This document shows, piece after piece, positions 874 to 8,312 of a stretch of DNA of 64,000 bases; position 1 is the stretch's first letter, and each line of letters begins with the position of its first letter. The stretch comes from a virus. Lineage: Duplodnaviria; Caudoviricetes. The translations under genes and the position numbers were made by a program. The stretch spans positions 6,031-70,030 of the IMG/VR virus record IMGVR_UViG_2974622612_000001. The stretch is one strand, 5' to 3'. The notes beneath the pieces are model-generated. The model made no database searches and had not been told where the DNA came from. It saw only the letters and a list, made by a program, of their open reading frames with translations.

Positions 874-1180
874 CTACACGCTCAAAGACGCCAAGGGAAC
901 GGTCAAGATTCTCACTCCGCTTAACCTCAATTCCAAGCCGACCCCTGTCGAATCGCATTGGCGTCGATGGGGTTTCGTATGGCTTCTGCTGTTCGCTTTC
1001 CTTGTTTCATGGTCACTCCAACTCGTCGCGATGCTACCGGAGGTATCGGAAAAGGGTTGGCACGAATTTTGGGCAGCCACGTTTGAAAACTGGCAGTCCG
1101 AATTCCTGCAATTGGTAGTGCAGGCCGTGCTGATTCAAAGCTGGCTCTTTCGGTACGGTTTCAAGGCAAAGGATGAGTGA
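866..1180 (+). CDS. Membrane protein (DUF6766-like)
   Basis: Hydrophobic segments and a TFENWQSEFLQL motif. Confidence 0.6.
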   Translation: MPDYTLKDAKGTVKILTPLNLNSKPTPVESHWRRWGFVWLLLFAFLVSWSLQLVAMLPEVSEKGWHEFWAATFENWQSEFLQLVVQAVLIQSWLFRYGFKAKDE

Positions 1181-1551
1181 TGGCCCGCTACAAGATGACA
1201 GCGAAGCGCCGTGCGGCTCTGCGTAAAGCACAGCTAGCATCGGCGCGAAAGCGGCGTAAGGGTGGCGTGAAGCGTCGTGCAAAGCGCCTCGGTCGCAACG
1301 TAAACCGCGAGTACGCGCGTAAAACGGCTTACGCGAAGAAGCACTACAGCGGTCGGGGCGGTATGCACCGCAAGCACAAGGACATGGCCCGCAGTCGTGG
1401 TGCATACAAGAACAACTGGCGCGGAAAGCGTTACGGTCGCACCGCTCGCGTCGTCAACCGTGGTGCCGGAGCGTTTCTCATGGCGAATCCCGGCTACGCT
1501 GCGCCGATTCTGGCGTCGAAGTACCGTGGTCGCAAGCGTAAGAAGCGTTGA
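1180..1551 (+). CDS. Basic K/R-rich protein, motif copy 1
   Basis: TGATG coupling; MARYKMTAKRRAALRKAQLASARKRR. Confidence 0.8.
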   Translation: MARYKMTAKRRAALRKAQLASARKRRKGGVKRRAKRLGRNVNREYARKTAYAKKHYSGRGGMHRKHKDMARSRGAYKNNWRGKRYGRTARVVNRGAGAFLMANPGYAAPILASKYRGRKRKKR

Positions 1552-1553
1552 TC

Positions 1554-1853
1554 ATGGCAAAGCGTCGGATGACAGCACGCCAAAAGGCCGCACTTCGCAA
1601 GGCCCAGTTGGCTTCTGCGCGTAAACGCCGTCGCGGCTCGCGTACGAAAAAGCGCATCAGCCGCGTGAATCGACGCGCTGACAAGCGGATCGCCAAGCAA
1701 GGCCGCAAGGTTCAGGGCGGTTTGTATACGCATTCCACCAAGGGTGGCGTCTACATGACCGGTCGCGCCGTCAAGGCGTACAACAAGGGCGTGAAAATCC
1801 ACAACAAGCGCGTCCGAAAAGTGAACAAGCTCAAGAAGAAACGGCGTCGGTGA
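1554..1853 (+). CDS. Basic K/R-rich protein, motif copy 2
   Basis: MAKRRMTARQKAALRKAQLASARKRR. Confidence 0.8.
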   Translation: MAKRRMTARQKAALRKAQLASARKRRRGSRTKKRISRVNRRADKRIAKQGRKVQGGLYTHSTKGGVYMTGRAVKAYNKGVKIHNKRVRKVNKLKKKRRR

Positions 1854-2251
1854 TGGCTCGCAGCGCGAAACAGAAAGCGGCACTACGCAAAGCACAGCTT
1901 GCCAGTGCGCGTGCTCGTCGTGGGCGTAAGCGTTCGCGCTCGTCGGGACATCACTACGGCACCGGCAAACAGGGAAGGCGCGCAACGAGGCGTGCAACCT
2001 ACGGCAAGAAAAAGCACGGCCTTTCCATAGCGCAGCAGCAGCGTCGTCGGCAGCGTGCGAACAAATGGAAGCGTCGTGGCCGTAGCGCAATGGCGGCAGC
2101 CGGTGTGGCCGCAACGATCTACGCGAAATCGACTCCGCAGCAACGCAGTGCGGCCAAGGGCGCTGCAAAGGTCTACGGAAACCGGGTGAAAACCAAGTAC
2201 AAGTACCACCGTTCAGGGATGGCTCGACAGGTCAAGCGAGGGATGCGCTGA
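1853..2251 (+). CDS. Basic K/R-rich protein, motif copy 3
   Basis: TGATG coupling; MARSAKQKAALRKAQLASARARR. Confidence 0.8.
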   Translation: MARSAKQKAALRKAQLASARARRGRKRSRSSGHHYGTGKQGRRATRRATYGKKKHGLSIAQQQRRRQRANKWKRRGRSAMAAAGVAATIYAKSTPQQRSAAKGAAKVYGNRVKTKYKYHRSGMARQVKRGMR

Positions 2252-2721
2252 TGGCTCGCTCACACAAGATGACTCCAGCCCGAAAGGCTGCGCTTCGCAA
2301 GGCGCAGCTTGTTTCGGCGCGCAAACGTCGCCGTCGTGGGGTCAAAAACGAACTGAAACGTGCTGGAAGGCAGTCGCTTTCAGCGGCACGCGCTGGCGGG
2401 TCTGTCGCCGCACGCAAGGCCGTGAAGAAATTCAACTCGCCTGCCAACAGGGCGCGACGTAGGAAGGCGGTCAAGGTGGCCGCTGTTGGCGCTGGTGTGG
2501 GGACGGCTGCGGTGCTGGGAGCCAAGACTGCGCCGATGGCGAAGCAACTGTACGCCAGCCGCAACGTCAGCCGACCTGGCCGGTCCTACGTGCGCTCCGA
2601 ACGCGGTGTGGCTCCGCGCGCAGTCACCGGTACGCGCACACGTGCGCTTACAATGGGTCCGAAGGGCAAGGCTGCGATGCGGTCTCGCCGGTACCGGGCT
2701 AGAAAGAAAGCGTCTCGATAA
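2251..2721 (+). CDS. Basic K/R-rich protein, motif copy 4
   Basis: TGATG coupling; MARSHKMTPARKAALRKAQLVSARKRR. Confidence 0.8.
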   Translation: MARSHKMTPARKAALRKAQLVSARKRRRRGVKNELKRAGRQSLSAARAGGSVAARKAVKKFNSPANRARRRKAVKVAAVGAGVGTAAVLGAKTAPMAKQLYASRNVSRPGRSYVRSERGVAPRAVTGTRTRALTMGPKGKAAMRSRRYRARKKASR

Positions 2722-3359
2722 TGGCGTACAACCCACTGCAAGCGCGCGACAGAAAAGGACGCTGGGTTGCCAAAGCTGGCAACGCTGCGTTCCGTGGTGG
2801 TGCAAAAGCGTTGGTGGGCAGCGGAACCAAGGCACGACCTAGCTCGTCGTCGCGTTCTGTGAAGGGACGTGGTAAAGGTGTCAAGGGATTCAAGGCCAAT
2901 TTCGTTCCTTATGGCCGCGTCAACAAGCGTTCTCAGACAGTCGGTTTCAACGCTGGCACGGTCGTCACGAAACGTAAGCGCGTGGTCGTCGGTGCGTATG
3001 CACGCATTGAAAGTACAACCAAGCACACAACGGCTGACAAGATCGCTGGTAAAGCTGCAAGTAAGGTGCTACCGACCACTACTCGACGCGGACGGGCTGC
3101 GAGAGCTTTCAAGCGCAACTTCTCCGTTAATAATCCCGCACTACGAGCAACTATCGGTGGGAGTCAGGCTCGCCTTAGCACCTCTCGCGGTGCTGGACCC
3201 ACGATTGTGGTACGTCGAGGTAAGCACAAGACTCCACAGGCGAAAAGTGCTGCGGGCGTTCAGCAATACGACAACAGAATGAGAGCGATCGCAGGCAAGA
3301 AAGCTGCAAAGGTCAAGAAGCGGCCACAGCGGCGAAAGGCAGCACGAAAGAAGCGGTGA
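2721..3359 (+). CDS. Basic protein, 212 aa, with N-terminal NPLQARDRKGRW motif
   Basis: TAATG coupling; K/R-rich throughout. Confidence 0.8.
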   Translation: MAYNPLQARDRKGRWVAKAGNAAFRGGAKALVGSGTKARPSSSSRSVKGRGKGVKGFKANFVPYGRVNKRSQTVGFNAGTVVTKRKRVVVGAYARIESTTKHTTADKIAGKAASKVLPTTTRRGRAARAFKRNFSVNNPALRATIGGSQARLSTSRGAGPTIVVRRGKHKTPQAKSAAGVQQYDNRMRAIAGKKAAKVKKRPQRRKAARKKR

Positions 3360-3802
3360 CGATGACAACCGGACGCATCGATTCGCCTTCACACGGTAAC
3401 CACTTGATTCCAGTGGGGGACCGTAAGGTTGAACAGGTCTTCTACCCTGACACACCGTTGTCGGATGCTACGAAAAAGCGATTGATTCTGGACTGTCACA
3501 GTTCAAAGCACGAACTGTGTGGGTTGCTCGACATTCAAGAGAGCATCTACTACATCGAAAACGTCCATGAGATAAGCGAATCCAACTTTTTCTTCGACAA
3601 GGCCGAGTACGAAATCGCGATCAATGAGATTTTCGAGAACAACCCCGGCCATCAAAACCCGATTTTGGGCATTTGGCACACGCATCCTACTAACATTCCA
3701 TGGCCTTCCCCCAGAGATATACGCGGGTGGCCTGAGCCTCGTTTGCAGTGGCGCTACTTCATCGTGACAAACGAAGCCGTCCATGAGTGGCGACTTGTGT
3801 AA
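3356..3802 (+). CDS. JAB/MPN (JAMM) metalloprotease
   Basis: N-terminal E (HELCGL) and HTHPTNIPWPSPRD, matching HxH-x7-S-x2-D. Confidence 0.85.
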   Translation: MTMTTGRIDSPSHGNHLIPVGDRKVEQVFYPDTPLSDATKKRLILDCHSSKHELCGLLDIQESIYYIENVHEISESNFFFDKAEYEIAINEIFENNPGHQNPILGIWHTHPTNIPWPSPRDIRGWPEPRLQWRYFIVTNEAVHEWRLV

Positions 3803-3814
3803 GCTGGACTGACG

Positions 3815-4723
3815 ATGACCCGGCCATTGCCCTCCGATGACCAAACGTCTTGGGACACCCTACGGCGACGTTGGTTGACGAGATACGCACGGATTCAAGC
3901 GAAAACGGATACGAAAATCCGAACCGCTCTGACTGACGCTGCCGAAGATGCATCGAAACGACTCATTCTCGTAGGCCAAAGCTCCACGTTTTCAGCCGGA
4001 GTGCGTCAGGCACAGATTCGGCTTGCGATGAAAGAACTCAAGGAAGTTCACCGTGAACTCTTTGACGAACTTCTGCCGATAATCAGGGACGGTCAGGCCG
4101 ATGAAGCAGGCGCAGCAGTCGATGGACTCACTGAGACAGACCGACGCTACTTGCTTGCCGCCCTTCGTGACTCATCTTCTACGAAATACTTCGTTGAATC
4201 TCAACGACAGGCTGCCCGCAATGGCGTCGCTCACGCAATTTCGTCACTCACAAAAAGTCGCGAGCCTCTTTCAGCTAGAGTTTATCGAACCAGGAGTTTG
4301 GCGAATAACTGGGTACAGCGGCTAGTCACTTCATCCATCGTTAGGGGCGACAGTGCGCAAGACATCGCGAAGGCTGTCAGAGCACATATACGACCCGGCA
4401 CGCCCGGTGGGACGGCCTATGCGGCGATGCGTTTGGGAAGGACAGAGCTTAACAACGCTTTCCACGCCACTTCCGTCGAGATTTCAAAGGATCGTCCATG
4501 GATTGAAGGCATGCGCTGGAATCTCTCGAAAGTTCATGAGCCGCAGGGCGGTACAGAAGCTTGCGAGAGGCTAGCAGGTCAGATTTTCGCGGTTGAAAAC
4601 GTCCCGAAAAAGCCGCACCCACAATGCAGATGCTTTGTGACACCGAATCTAATTCCATTTGAGTTGTTTTTGACTCAACTTGCGTCGGGACAATACAGAG
4701 AGTGGACAGAAAATGCAGCATAA
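3815..4723 (+). CDS. MuF-like minor head protein
   Basis: RLGRTE...W...CERL...HPQCRC motif series; upstream of the scaffold. Confidence 0.8.
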   Translation: MTRPLPSDDQTSWDTLRRRWLTRYARIQAKTDTKIRTALTDAAEDASKRLILVGQSSTFSAGVRQAQIRLAMKELKEVHRELFDELLPIIRDGQADEAGAAVDGLTETDRRYLLAALRDSSSTKYFVESQRQAARNGVAHAISSLTKSREPLSARVYRTRSLANNWVQRLVTSSIVRGDSAQDIAKAVRAHIRPGTPGGTAYAAMRLGRTELNNAFHATSVEISKDRPWIEGMRWNLSKVHEPQGGTEACERLAGQIFAVENVPKKPHPQCRCFVTPNLIPFELFLTQLASGQYREWTENAA

Positions 4724-4766
4724 GGGTAACGTCAACAACAACCGGACAACGCGGAAGGAAAATCCC

Positions 4767-5549
4767 ATGAACGCAATGCCCCCCAAGCTTCTCGCTGCCA
4801 TCGATCCCAAGCGTGCCGCGTTGAATGCGTGGCCGATCTTCGGTGGTTCATCGCCAACGCCTCCGGCTCAGCCCGATCCGGCGCAGCAGGGCCAACAGCC
4901 TCCCGTTGGTCAGCCTCCGGCTGCAACGCCTCCCGCGCAGCCTCAGCAGCAGGCCGCTCCCGCCTCTGGCGGGGCTGCCAACATCGACGTGAATCAGCTT
5001 CTCGCACAGGTGCAGACGCTCTCGCAGCAGGTGCAGACGCTCACCGACGAGAACAACGGCTACAAGCAGAAGGAAACCGACGCTGAAAACGCGAAGAAAA
5101 CGCGTGAACAGCAGTTGGAGCAAACCATTCAGCAGAAGGACGCGCAAATTGCCGCTGCGCAGAACTTGATTGCGCAGAAGTCGTTGGAGAACGCACTTCT
5201 CACGCACAAGGATTACCAGTGGCACGACGCGACCGACGCGTTGCTTTCACTCAAGGACGCCGAAGGCGTGAAAGTCACGGTGGACATCGACAAGCAAATC
5301 GCCACCGTCGAAGGTCTCGACAACGCGATCAAGGACTTGGCGACACGCAAGCCGTGGATGTTGGCGAAAGGTCCCGAGCAGCAACAGCAGCAGGACCCGA
5401 ATCAGCAGCAGCAGCCGCCCGCACCGGGGCGTCCATCGGGCCGTCCCCCGGCTTCGAACAACGGTGACGCGACCAAGGTTCAGCAGCGAGCCGCACTCGG
5501 CAACAAATACTCAGCAATTCGACGCGCCCCGGTAATTGCCGGGGGCTAG
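4767..5549 (+). CDS. Capsid scaffolding protein
   Basis: P/Q-rich low-complexity ends, coiled-coil centre, position before capsid; GGAAGGA RBS favours ATG 4767. Confidence 0.75.
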   Translation: MNAMPPKLLAAIDPKRAALNAWPIFGGSSPTPPAQPDPAQQGQQPPVGQPPAATPPAQPQQQAAPASGGAANIDVNQLLAQVQTLSQQVQTLTDENNGYKQKETDAENAKKTREQQLEQTIQQKDAQIAAAQNLIAQKSLENALLTHKDYQWHDATDALLSLKDAEGVKVTVDIDKQIATVEGLDNAIKDLATRKPWMLAKGPEQQQQQDPNQQQQPPAPGRPSGRPPASNNGDATKVQQRAALGNKYSAIRRAPVIAGG

Positions 5550-5606: not shown

Positions 5607-5627
5607 CTGCCAGACGTGGAGGAAGAA

Positions 5628-6101
5628 ATGACGTTCCCGAACCTGACGACCAAGCCTCGGTGGGACAAGTACGACGGATATGTCGGCAACTTCCGCGCGC
5701 CGCTGGCAGCCGCCGTCAATCTCGCCACTCAAGCCAACCGCGTTCTGCCGGTGGGCATCAACGCGCAGGGCGCAGCCGTCCTCGGTGGGGCAGGCCAGAC
5801 CGGCATCGTCGGTGTGGTCATCATCCCCGTAGGTACCGACATGAACGGCAACCTGCTCGACGGTGGAATCAACACCGGAGTCGGTGACATCTGCGACGTG
5901 GGAAAGCACGGTGAAATCGTCAACTTCCGCACGACGGCGGCTGACGGAACGACCGGCGCTCCCGCAGCGGGCACCAAGTATTACGCCCACCCCAACGGCG
6001 CAATCGACGCGGCCAAGGGCGCGGACGGCGTTTACATCGGGCACACGGTCGAAGCCGACCGGCTCATCGTGAATGTCAACGAGGAAGACGCCGCAGCGTA
6101 A
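5628..6101 (+). CDS. Probable capsid decoration / minor capsid protein
   Basis: GGAGGA RBS; Gly-rich, beta-type composition; between scaffold and capsid. Confidence 0.6.
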   Translation: MTFPNLTTKPRWDKYDGYVGNFRAPLAAAVNLATQANRVLPVGINAQGAAVLGGAGQTGIVGVVIIPVGTDMNGNLLDGGINTGVGDICDVGKHGEIVNFRTTAADGTTGAPAAGTKYYAHPNGAIDAAKGADGVYIGHTVEADRLIVNVNEEDAAA

Positions 6102-6160
6102 TTGCGGTCGGAACGCAGCAGAAACAGTCTGGAATTTAGGAAAGAAACGAAGGGAACGCC

Positions 6161-7435
6161 ATGACGACGGCACTCTTGGAGCGGCCCAGCGGTTCTGCGC
6201 GGTCGGTCTCTGACCTCGAAATCGTGCCCCCGCATGATCCGCGCTTGATGGCGCTGTCGGCGTGGGATTACCTCGGTGGTGGTACCGCTCCGGTACGCCA
6301 AGAGGGGATCATGACCGGTGGCGATCTGGTCACCGCCACCGCTGACGGTACCGACCTCAACGCTCTGTGGAATGAGTTCGCGCTCACCACGGAGATTTAC
6401 AACGAGGAAATGGACCGCCTGATCGAACTTCTGACGTTCAACGTCGAAGTTCCGGTGGAACCGGTCGTGCAGATCGGTGAGGTCACGTTCGAAGAAGCAT
6501 CTGAGCTTGGCGTGCCGCGAGGCGCTGGCCTGCCCATCGATGTCTTCCAGATGGGCTACGACCTGCGTCACTACGACAAGCGCAACGCCTACACGTGGAT
6601 GTTCCTGGCCGACGCCGATGCGCGTCAGGTCGAGGCGATCCACAACGCGATTCTGTGGGCGCACAAGCGGCTCGTTTTCCGCAAGGTCATGGAGGCGATT
6701 TTCGACAATCGCGTCCGTCGCGCGAACATCCGCAACCAGGCGTACAACGTCTACCCGCTCTACAACGGCACGGACGGTGTTGCACCGCCTCCGTTCGCCA
6801 ACAACACATTCGACGCGAGCCACACGCACTACGTTCGCTCCGGCAACACCGCGCTTGATCCAGGCGACCTGGACACGCTTTACATGCTGCTGGCCGAGCA
6901 CGGTTACAGCGCGGAGGGCGGCACCGAATTCCTTCTGCTGGTCAACAAGGCCGAAGCAGATGTGATTCGCACCTTCCGTCGCGGCGTGATGACCAACGGC
7001 GTCACGGCGACCTACGACTTCATTCAGTCGCCGGGTCAGCCCGCCACAGTGCTCCCCAACGCTGAGGGTCTACTGGGCACTCAGCCGGGAGACGTGTTCC
7101 GTGGCATCCCGATCATCGGCAAGTACGGGCACCTGCACATCGCTGAGAACACCTACATCCCTGCGGGATACCTCGTTCTCATCGGTTCCGGTGGCCGGTT
7201 CGATCTGCGCAACCCGGTCGGCCTGCGTTCTCACCAGAACCCGGCCATGCAGGGGCTTCGCATCATCCCCGGCAACTACCAGCGGTACCCGCTGATCGAC
7301 GCGTTCTACGCCTGGTCGGGCGGCACCGGCATTCGTCAGCGCGGCGGTGCAGCCGTCATGCAGCTTGGCGAACTGCCGCACAGCAACTACGTCATCCCGA
7401 CGCAGTTCCGCAAGGGTGGCGGCTTCCTGGTGTAA
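6161..7435 (+). CDS. Major capsid protein
   Basis: 424 aa, strong GC3 bias, after scaffold/decoration gene, followed by a stem-loop. Confidence 0.85.
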   Translation: MTTALLERPSGSARSVSDLEIVPPHDPRLMALSAWDYLGGGTAPVRQEGIMTGGDLVTATADGTDLNALWNEFALTTEIYNEEMDRLIELLTFNVEVPVEPVVQIGEVTFEEASELGVPRGAGLPIDVFQMGYDLRHYDKRNAYTWMFLADADARQVEAIHNAILWAHKRLVFRKVMEAIFDNRVRRANIRNQAYNVYPLYNGTDGVAPPPFANNTFDASHTHYVRSGNTALDPGDLDTLYMLLAEHGYSAEGGTEFLLLVNKAEADVIRTFRRGVMTNGVTATYDFIQSPGQPATVLPNAEGLLGTQPGDVFRGIPIIGKYGHLHIAENTYIPAGYLVLIGSGGRFDLRNPVGLRSHQNPAMQGLRIIPGNYQRYPLIDAFYAWSGGTGIRQRGGAAVMQLGELPHSNYVIPTQFRKGGGFLV

Positions 7436-7508: not shown

Positions 7509-8312
7509 ATGAGCCTGGTTCTGGACCCGAATCGTCCGTGGACGAAGGAAGAAAAGGAATGGGCGCGTTCGTCTGGCCGTGGCTACATGGTCGAGACGAA
7601 TGAGCGTCGATTCCCCGGTGGCAAGGCGAAGAACGCCGCGCGCCACGAAAAGGCCGGAGAGCCACCGGAATCCGCGCAATTCGGCGCTCTCGGAGAGCAG
7701 GCACGACAGGCTGCCGTCTATGACGTGGGCGGTGTCGCTCTGCCGGGAACCACGCTGGACTACGACACCGGTCGGGCATTGCAGTTCGATGCCGAAGGCA
7801 ACGGAGTGGCCGTCGAGCCGAACATTCCGGTCAACTCCCCCGGCGCTTTCGCCACCGTCGCTCTGCGTCAGGAGTCGGAAGGCTTTGGGTCCTACAGCGA
7901 TTCGGGCGATGACATCGATGACGACATCGTTGACTACGTTCTCGGATTGAAGACGAAGGCCGACGTTCAGAAGGCTTTGGACGAGGCCAACGCCAACGCA
8001 CCCGAGCAGTTCCGGCAGTCCTACACCAAGAGCGAAGATCGCGATTCGCTCAACGACAAGCTCGCTCTGGTATTGCAGGACACCCGGCACCCCGAGGCAG
8101 CCGCGCAGGCACGGCAGATGGCGCAGCACACGCAGCCTCCGGCGCTTGACGCCGAGGACGAATCGATGCTGGAAAAGAACACCGGTTTCACCGACGACTT
8201 CGCTGACGACGAAGCCTCCCCGGCTTCCGGCGAGGGCGACGACGCCGAGAGCCAGCAGCAGAACGACGGGCCGGAGACCGACGCGGAGCCGAAGAAGTCC
8301 AGCAAGAAGTAG
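7509..8312 (+). CDS. Acidic hypothetical virion-associated protein
   Basis: GAGGA RBS, phage-like codon bias, after capsid. Confidence 0.65.
   Translation: MSLVLDPNRPWTKEEKEWARSSGRGYMVETNERRFPGGKAKNAARHEKAGEPPESAQFGALGEQARQAAVYDVGGVALPGTTLDYDTGRALQFDAEGNGVAVEPNIPVNSPGAFATVALRQESEGFGSYSDSGDDIDDDIVDYVLGLKTKADVQKALDEANANAPEQFRQSYTKSEDRDSLNDKLALVLQDTRHPEAAAQARQMAQHTQPPALDAEDESMLEKNTGFTDDFADDEASPASGEGDDAESQQQNDGPETDAEPKKSSKK

Follow-up and report, generated by a model that had tools for sequence, protein, structure and literature searches.

A conserved N-terminal peptide heads an array of polycationic proteins in the head module of Barnyard-like mycobacteriophages and may act as a capsid-loading tag

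Results

An array of tagged polycationic genes downstream of the portal

The window analyzed here is a 64,000-nucleotide stretch of a Caudoviricetes genome (positions 6,031 to 70,030 of IMG/VR record IMGVR_UViG_2974622612_000001), the first letters of which fall just 3' of the portal gene. At 1180-3359 it carries an array of five extremely basic genes, four of which open with a shared peptide built around the core AALRKAQ (the tag), and the nature and possible role of the tagged proteins are the subject of this work. The window is related to Mycobacterium phage Barnyard (cluster H), which it matches at 80% nucleotide identity across 76% of its first 6.2 kb, and represents the head module of a Barnyard-like mycobacteriophage of that cluster. 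The array consists of the following genes, the last being referred to as open reading frame 5 (ORF5):

1180-1551, + strand: tagged polybasic protein 1, 123 residues, 36% Lys+Arg; orthologue of Barnyard gp13; motif core at 1213-1248
1554-1853, + strand: tagged polybasic protein 2, 99 residues, 40% Lys+Arg; orthologues Barnyard gp14 and in Predator, phrog_16007; motif core at 1587-1622
1853-2251, + strand: tagged polybasic protein 3, 132 residues, 32% Lys+Arg, zero acidic residues; motif core at 1877-1912
2251-2721, + strand: tagged polybasic protein 4, 156 residues; orthologue of Barnyard gp15; motif core at 2287-2322
2721-3359, + strand: fifth basic protein (ORF5), 212 residues, net charge +52; Barnyard gp16, Patience gp18, phrog_12708

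A preliminary description of this DNA had reported five consecutive, very Lys/Arg-rich ORFs that mostly overlap stop to start, and the ORF list, the junctions, and the charge counts all confirm this. Gene starts were set by a family-wide comparison of starts together with a reading of the junctions. Of the six junctions, five (among them that between ORF5 and the JAB gene 3' of it) have stop and start codons that overlap by 1-4 nucleotides (TGATG, TAATG, or GTGA), and the sixth has a 2-nucleotide spacer; given these overlaps, the block is translationally coupled. Tagged proteins 1-4 are composed of 30-40% Lys+Arg with at most two acidic residues, giving net charges of +39 to +45. The ratio of nonsynonymous to synonymous substitution rates (dN/dS) against the Barnyard orthologues is 0.15-0.26, similar to, if somewhat above, that of the neighboring JAB and MuF genes (0.09-0.12), and these values indicate that the frames are coding and the genes real. 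The possibility that the array is an artefact of a long antisense ORF at 1494-2168 is excluded by the dN/dS values in the + frames. Tagged gene 3 (1853-2251) has no counterpart in Barnyard, where gp15 directly follows gp14, and by this comparison of gene content the copy number of the array varies even between phages that are 80% identical.

Conservation of the tag in the window

The string AALRKAQL-(A/V)-SAR-x-RR is invariant in proteins 1-4 of the window and in Barnyard gp13, gp14, and gp15 (alignment A1), and this alignment also bears out the earlier observation that four of the ORFs share an N-terminal motif and then diverge. At the nucleotide level, 8-11 of the 36 core positions differ between pairs of paralogues, mostly at third codon positions; the second core Leu is encoded by CTA, TTG, CTT, and CTT, and the Ser by TCG, TCT, AGT, and TCG, exactly as first described for these two residues. 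Purifying selection on the peptide, as had been proposed, is borne out by both the third-position differences and the dN/dS values given above, and from these comparisons it is the peptide, not the DNA, that stays conserved in the tag. The extent of the motif had been understated, as the conserved unit spans approximately 23 residues, starting from an aromatic-basic-Met-Thr-Pro stretch upstream of the core. A hidden Markov model (HMM) of the motif finds exactly four copies in the window (E 2e-13 to 3e-9), and the same search detected no further tagged protein in the window or in the whole genome of phage Patience beyond the array.

A large family with a common start and unrelated tails

An IMG/VR scan with the motif identified 33 loci, and an HMM scan of these yielded 95 distinct complete proteins in Barnyard/Patience-type head modules. 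The motif starts between residues 1 and 25 (median 7) in all 95. The usual protein begins with Met-Ala-Arg/Lys and a few basic or aromatic residues, followed by the 23-residue unit, whose positions are almost all conserved, in the order aromatic, basic, Met, Thr, Pro, x, Arg, Arg/Lys, the AALRKAQ core, x, Ala, Ser, Ala, Arg, Lys, Arg, and Arg/Lys. Gly or Gly-Gly is frequent just behind the tag, and 58 of the 95 proteins continue from about residue 42 with an uncharged Gly/Ala/Val run of 15-22 residues that often ends in Tyr. Such a run is likewise present in 114 of 161 family proteins in a second count, and its mean Kyte-Doolittle value is 1.0-2.2; in the window it is clear only for protein 4 (residues 76-91, nucleotides 2476-2523). 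The tails are mostly unrelated to one another: no relative could be detected for 50 of 94, and orthologous groups are few and small. Across the 95 proteins the median content is 27% Lys+Arg and 2.7% Asp+Glu. Tandem arrays hold from 2 to at least 12 genes, the largest being one of 12 genes that is cut off by the end of its 8.5-kb contig, followed by one of 11 genes on a contig of 69.5 kb. The family reaches cultured mycobacteriophages of clusters H and U, and in this lineage it takes up 2-5 kb of the head operon.

Searched against 1.84 billion representative proteins, the tag profile matched 960 clusters at E<=0.001, and in almost every one of the 150 best matches the tag is close to the N-terminus. 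A word-indexed homologue search with the tag region returned 17 close matches, and a search for longer, fused forms returned none, a negative that is weak evidence as the query was short. A one-per-species scan of 185,579 bacterial and archaeal genomes contained no confirmed copy, and on the basis of these searches the tag family is phage-only. None of the five window proteins has a Pfam match even at E<=1, ten long family members likewise matched no Pfam family, and overall there were two weak, sub-threshold Pfam matches only. Among PHROGs, only small function-unknown groups from Patience and cluster H were matched; a tag profile search of PDB sequences found no relative, and the ESM Atlas gave no usable neighbors.

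The AlphaFold2 model of protein 4, built from a 149-sequence alignment, consists of long helices with no globular fold (predicted template modeling score, 0.32), within which the tag is a confident helix at residues 9-28 (predicted local distance difference test [pLDDT] score of ~90-97). In the predicted architecture, each protein is made of an N-terminal cationic helix of ~23 residues, followed in most members by a Gly/Ala-rich helix and then by a fast-evolving polycationic tail with no globular fold.

Tagged homologues are components of the Patience virion

In phage Patience, gene 111 and gp10-gp18 are direct homologues that occupy the same slot between the portal and protease genes, and gp11, gp13, gp14, gp15, gp17, and gp18 all carry the tag; compared with Patience, the window has four tagged genes, and its ORF5 bears an alternative tag described below. 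The products of Patience genes 111 and 9-18 are tabled as virion proteins from mass spectrometry of purified particles, with gp9 given in the text as not detected, and gp15 (32 kDa) is one of the three major bands in gel electrophoresis of the particles (PMC4324244). In the same paper most of these proteins are given as function-unknown orphams, no common motif is pointed out, and gp86 and gp21 are flagged as likely contaminants, the tagged proteins not being among those flagged (PMC4324244). The virion status of the Patience proteins is, in other words, already known.

Two cryo-electron microscopy (cryo-EM) studies bear on where in the particle they reside. In the first, the abundant gp15 was considered a capsid accessory protein and could not be fitted to the capsid density (PMC7150772). 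In a later high-resolution study, the shell was modeled from the major capsid protein (MCP), 420 minor proteins, and gp4. That so abundant a protein as gp15 should be missing from the ordered shell is what would be expected of an internal, disordered component, and from this absence we infer that the tagged proteins are internal. More speculatively, an unmodeled inner helix seen by cryo-EM under the local 3-folds could be a candidate for the tag common to several of these proteins.

ORF5 and a second N-terminal tag

The ORF5 family has a conserved domain of ~150 residues (alignment A4), and its Patience member, gp18, is the orthologue of window ORF5, with 49% identity in the part that aligns. 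Nine of 13 aligned homologues, including Patience gp18, start with an AALRKAQ-type tag, often degenerate, and those of the window, Barnyard, Predator, and locus L012 instead start with aromatic-N-P-x-Q-x-R-D-x2-G-R-W. In the window this second tag reads Y-N-P-x3-R-D-x2-G-R-W at nucleotides 2727-2765, and ORF5 has no AALRKAQ motif. Small basic proteins in the portal-MuF slot of Nocardia phage P3.1 and of loci L041 and L042 carry R-D-x2-G-R-F/W near the N-terminus and not AALRKAQ. Homologous head modules thus place similar proteins at this position under one or the other of two exchangeable N-terminal peptides, and the window uses both. These comparisons support the view that the motif behaves as a modular N-terminal unit, one that can head unrelated tails as well as the ORF5 domain. 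The second tag has the general form aromatic-N/D-P-x3-4-R-D-x2-G-R-W/F and was seen at loci L019, L012, L039, L041, L042, and L043, including on a 67-kb IMG/VR contig; the pattern with which IMG/VR was scanned for it was narrow, and most of the proteins retrieved were ORF5 homologues.

ORF5 itself had no Pfam match at E<=1, its AlphaFold2 model (pLDDT score of 59) had no fold match, and a profile search of PDB sequences returned nothing relevant. GenBank names it a capsid maturation protease in several cluster H phages (its homologues in cluster H1) and phrog_12708 is labeled "head maturation protease"; we did not adopt this identification, as it has no fold or family support. Three residues never vary in the family: a Ser in a mostly conserved G-T-S-R-G stretch, the His 14 residues after it, and a Glu.

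Full-text searches of the searchable literature found no mention of the motif, and neither the common tag nor the extent of the family, its confinement to phages, the alternative tag, or the architecture appears to have been described.

Synteny and the distribution of the array

The gene order in approximately 25 loci is TerL, portal, a small conserved basic protein, the array, the ORF5 family, JAB, MuF, scaffold, minor capsid protein, and MCP. A check of gene context with the motif HMM, suggested in the preliminary description, was carried out and found the homologues tied to head modules, almost always in the portal-MuF slot. This association extends to a distant lineage (locus L028, portal 25% identical), in which three tagged genes separate the portal from a minor head protein with weak likeness to MuF and the array occurs without JAB or ORF5. 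At this locus the portal gene is closely preceded by a gene for a PfkB-family kinase (1254-2120), and the MuF-like gene is closely followed by one for a type IB topoisomerase (5939-6802). On low-GC contigs of other phage types (locus L029 at 7608-8117 and loci L030-L032 and L034), basic proteins carry the elements in reversed order compared with the window, and the tagged gene of L029 adjoins the large terminase gene.

Cluster D phages such as Gumball and Adjutor have the same module, including JAB, but without the array and without ORF5. In these and other cluster D phages, the gene upstream of terminase (Gumball gp6, at 2145-4553 of locus L036) encodes an 802-residue protein with a C-terminal ADP-ribosyltransferase exoenzyme domain (PF03496). 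The N-terminus of gp6 has a degenerate, AALRKAQ-like basic stretch that scores 8.5 bits with strong composition bias, a weak hint that a tag may sit on the cluster D ADP-ribosyltransferase, recalling T4 Alt.

The remainder of the head module in the window is as follows:

2-154, + strand: small basic ORF, 3' part only; orthologue of Barnyard gp8, with weak likeness to Patience gene 111
174-380, + strand: 68-residue basic protein, net charge +25; Barnyard gp9, Patience gp10, Gumball gp9; phrog_1375
377-523: 48-residue protein with a membrane helix, conserved in Barnyard
514-873: 119-residue acidic protein, conserved in Barnyard
866-1180: 104-residue protein with membrane helices, weak DUF6766 match
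3356-3802, + strand: stand-alone JAB/MPN (Prok-JAB) metalloprotease; Patience gp19, "protease"
3815-4723, + strand: MuF-like head morphogenesis protein
4680-5549, + strand: scaffolding protein (PF06810), with P-I-F-G-G at 4833-4847
5616-6101, + strand: homologue of the trimeric minor capsid protein, Patience gp22
6161-7435, + strand: MCP, Patience-type HK97 fold

The two additional basic ORFs at 2-154 and 174-380 that had been pointed out earlier are genuine, and both have conserved counterparts in Barnyard (gp8 and gp9) and in Patience (gene 111-like and gp10). The product of Patience gene 111 is a particle-associated peptide (PMC4324244, Table 1), and the 174-380 protein is the product of a conserved core gene of the Barnyard/Patience head-module type that does not carry the AALRKAQ motif. 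The three genes at 377-523, 514-873, and 866-1180 separate these small basic genes from the tagged array.

In Patience, the MCP is cut after Gln82 and the scaffold after Gly34, and the first scaffold peptides start at residue 35, right behind Gly-Gly (PMC4324244). The scaffold (4833-4847) and the N-terminus of the MCP (6269-6283) in the window share a hydrophobic-x-G-G sequence followed by Ser/Thr and Pro, in the variants P-I-F-G-G for the window scaffold, Y-L-G-G-G for the window MCP, and P-I-F-G-G for both gp21 and gp23 of Patience. Cutting after Gly-Gly fits a JAB/MPN protease, so the stand-alone JAB protein at 3356-3802 may be the processing enzyme. The context of the MCP cut after Gln82 (V-V-Q / I-G-E, 6464-6481 in the window) is a different kind of site from Gly-Gly.

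Discussion

The results reported here describe a family in which one short, nearly invariant peptide is placed in front of otherwise unrelated polycationic tails, and in Patience these proteins are part of the particle. The interpretation that we favor, and to which we would give about an even chance of being right as a whole, is that the tagged proteins are internal head proteins of the virion, with the tag docking in the procapsid, the tails acting as counter-ions, and the extended build allowing exit with the DNA. In this scenario, the tag would be a shared docking element that brings the proteins into the procapsid before DNA packaging, by way of a conserved inner-capsid, scaffold, or portal-proximal site. 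After DNA entry, the tails could serve as fixed counter-ions for the densely packed 70-kb genome, and the extended, unfolded proteins could leave with the DNA through the portal and tail. The docking role, the internal location, charge neutralization, and ejection are each putative. The preliminary description had already put forward an "address tag plus polycation" arrangement and pointed to T4. The location in the head module, the listing of the Patience homologues as virion proteins, and the N-terminal modularity of the tag speak in favor of this arrangement, but the tag has no sequence relation to the targeting sequence of T4. That description had also overlooked two features, the recurrent Gly/Ala-rich hydrophobic helix and the different tag on the fifth ORF.

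T4 provides the precedent, as its diverse internal proteins have only the capsid targeting sequence in common (PMC3012670). The T4 proteins IPI, IPII, IPIII, and Alt resemble those described here in that otherwise unrelated basic phage proteins share a short N-terminal peptide, and in T4 they lie inside the mature head. The defining feature of the T4 system, a short N-terminal peptide on otherwise unrelated head proteins, is found in this family as well, with an N-terminal tag in 95 of 95 proteins and tails that are mostly unrelated. Neither the T4 capsid targeting sequence nor the IP proteins turned up as relatives in searches of PHROGs, Pfam, and PDB, and several further differences are apparent: the tag here is ~23 residues long and strongly basic, whereas that of T4 is ~10 residues; the host phage is a siphophage, whose T=7 head is of the HK97 type, has its own separate scaffold, and lacks both a core of the T4 type and the gp21 protease; and what the tags carry are low-complexity polycations, most of which include a hydrophobic helix, whereas the payloads of T4 are folded inhibitors. 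By analogy, the system would work like the T4 internal proteins and their targeting sequence, but it lies outside that family.

Other particles offer looser parallels. Adenovirus proteins VII, V, and mu and protein J of phiX174 are small polycationic virion proteins that are thought to neutralize packaged DNA, and protein J joins its basic part to a hydrophobic anchor on the coat protein. These proteins are unrelated in sequence and enter with the DNA rather than into a preformed procapsid that is filled via a portal, and the likeness is one of analogy only. The MuF-linked "polyvalent" proteins are also head-module cargo, encoded beside a MuF gene and delivered with the DNA (Iyer et al. 2017, PMC5512222). 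Unlike these, the basic proteins of the window have neither a MuF domain (PF04233) nor a recognizable enzymatic domain, and MuF is found only in the product of the 3815-4723 gene.

A role for the tails in charge neutralization finds circumstantial support in genome sizes. Patience and Adjutor have the same internal capsid diameter of 63 nm and pack 70.5 kb and 64.5 kb, respectively, and, more generally, the array-bearing genomes are 68-71 kb in size and nearly all cluster D genomes 64.5-65 kb (Hawkeye, 67.4 kb). A bolder version of the proposal holds that the AALRKAQ helix pins interchangeable polycations to the inner shell for a protamine-like, adenovirus-core-like neutralization of DNA charge, whereby supersized T=7 capsids take ~10% more DNA than array-less cluster D phages with the same shell; we consider this version doubtful.

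Several observations weigh against loading of internal counter-ions by a docking tag. The genome-size contrast involves very few independent lineages, and DNA fills these capsids at normal to high density as it is, limiting the room for internal protein. The motif is C-terminal, behind the hydrophobic run, in the few other lineages with reversed element order (L029-L032 and L034). Patience particle proteins that are encoded elsewhere (gp1, gp4, gp79, and gp86) carry no tag, and no site resembling the Gln82 or Gly34 cleavage contexts of Patience is evident behind it. Finally, the tag has remained nearly invariant while the scaffold (27-35% identity) and portal (25-58%) have diverged, so an invariant ligand such as DNA fits better than a co-evolving protein site, and in our own reading of the helical wheel, the basic residues point all around the helix, as in nucleic-acid-binding arginine-rich helices.

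The last two points lead directly to an alternative in which the helix is a nucleic-acid-binding basic region, comparable to the basic region of a basic leucine zipper (bZIP) or to an arginine-rich motif, and not an address. The proteins would then enter by bulk attraction to the scaffold, which is acidic and Gln-rich in these phages, and would later clamp a defined feature of the packaged DNA, or an RNA. That the 23-mer is kept at almost all of its positions even between head modules that have diverged strongly suggests just such an invariant ligand, the basic residues occur on all sides of the helix, interspersed with Ala, Ser, Gln, and Thr, and the ability of the motif to stand at the C-terminus in other lineages is easily accommodated. 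We nevertheless regard this explanation, the strongest of the rivals, as unlikely. A non-specific DNA binder need be neither invariant nor N-terminal, the remainder of each protein is already polycationic, and the replacement of the tag by an unrelated N-terminal peptide in homologous slots is easier to understand for an address. There is also no Pfam match to bZIP or any DNA-binding family at E<=1 and no relative in PDB, and we accordingly rejected membership in the bZIP family.

Alternatively, the proteins may be ejection proteins that act on the host membrane, with the Gly/Ala-rich helix inserting, the cationic tag anchoring on acidic lipids, and a conduit for DNA being formed or stabilized, in which case charge neutralization would be a side effect. 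The proteins are virion-borne, their extended helical models could pass the tail channel, and the 15-22-residue hydrophobic run, present in 58 of the 95 and 114 of the 161 proteins, stays paired with the motif even where the order is reversed. This run is not clear, however, in three of the four window proteins and in ~30-40% of the family, strongly basic flanks on both sides of it violate the normal rules of membrane topology, and in siphophages the usual channel former is the tape measure protein, so that we find a membrane role distinctly unlikely. Another candidate, a Tat (twin-arginine translocation) signal or signal anchor, was rejected as well: although R-R/K-A-A-L-R/K-K is similar to the Tat core (S/T-R-R-x-F-L-K), the hydrophobic run comes only after a further 25-30 highly basic residues instead of within a few, about one-third of members have no run, and the "mature" part is polycationic.

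Whether the tag could chiefly be a processing signal, that is, a propeptide removed by a protease of the module (JAB or the ORF5 family) as gp21 does in T4, is raised by the translational coupling of the array to ORF5 and the JAB metalloprotease, by the processing of the Patience MCP and scaffold, and by the Gly or Gly-Gly often found behind the tag. The distribution of the genes makes this improbable, as JAB occurs without the array in cluster D and the array without JAB or ORF5 at locus L028, and so do the Patience data: the band assigned to gp15 matches the full-length 32 kDa, and no conserved site clearly corresponds to the two known cleavage contexts. It is hardly credible that these are proteins of the infected cell, membrane-anchored or nucleoid-associated, that stick to DNA and capsids and merely co-purify, for although their extreme charge would make them sticky and their architecture is like that of a signal anchor, gp15 forms one of the major bands in purified particles, all six tagged Patience proteins were detected, the contaminants flagged in that study (gp86 and gp21) do not include them, and the genes lie in the head operon in every lineage.

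To our knowledge, internal head proteins are well understood in only a few models, such as T4, P22, T7, and the giant phages. The observations reported here add a siphophage lineage that spends 2-5 kb of its head operon on a large family of tagged polycations that lies outside Pfam, is confined to phages, and has homologues that are established parts of the virion. Should the tag prove to be a loading signal, this would explain the decade-old "orpham virion proteins" of Patience, and it would provide a candidate identity for unassigned cryo-EM density and link the charge balance of the capsid to genome capacity. These points are directly testable in Mycobacterium smegmatis with existing phages. 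The AALRKAQ tag and the R-D-x2-G-R-W tag could then also be employed to load chosen proteins into mycobacteriophage heads and, as mycobacteriophages are used as genetic tools and therapeutics, such a handle for cargo would be of practical importance.

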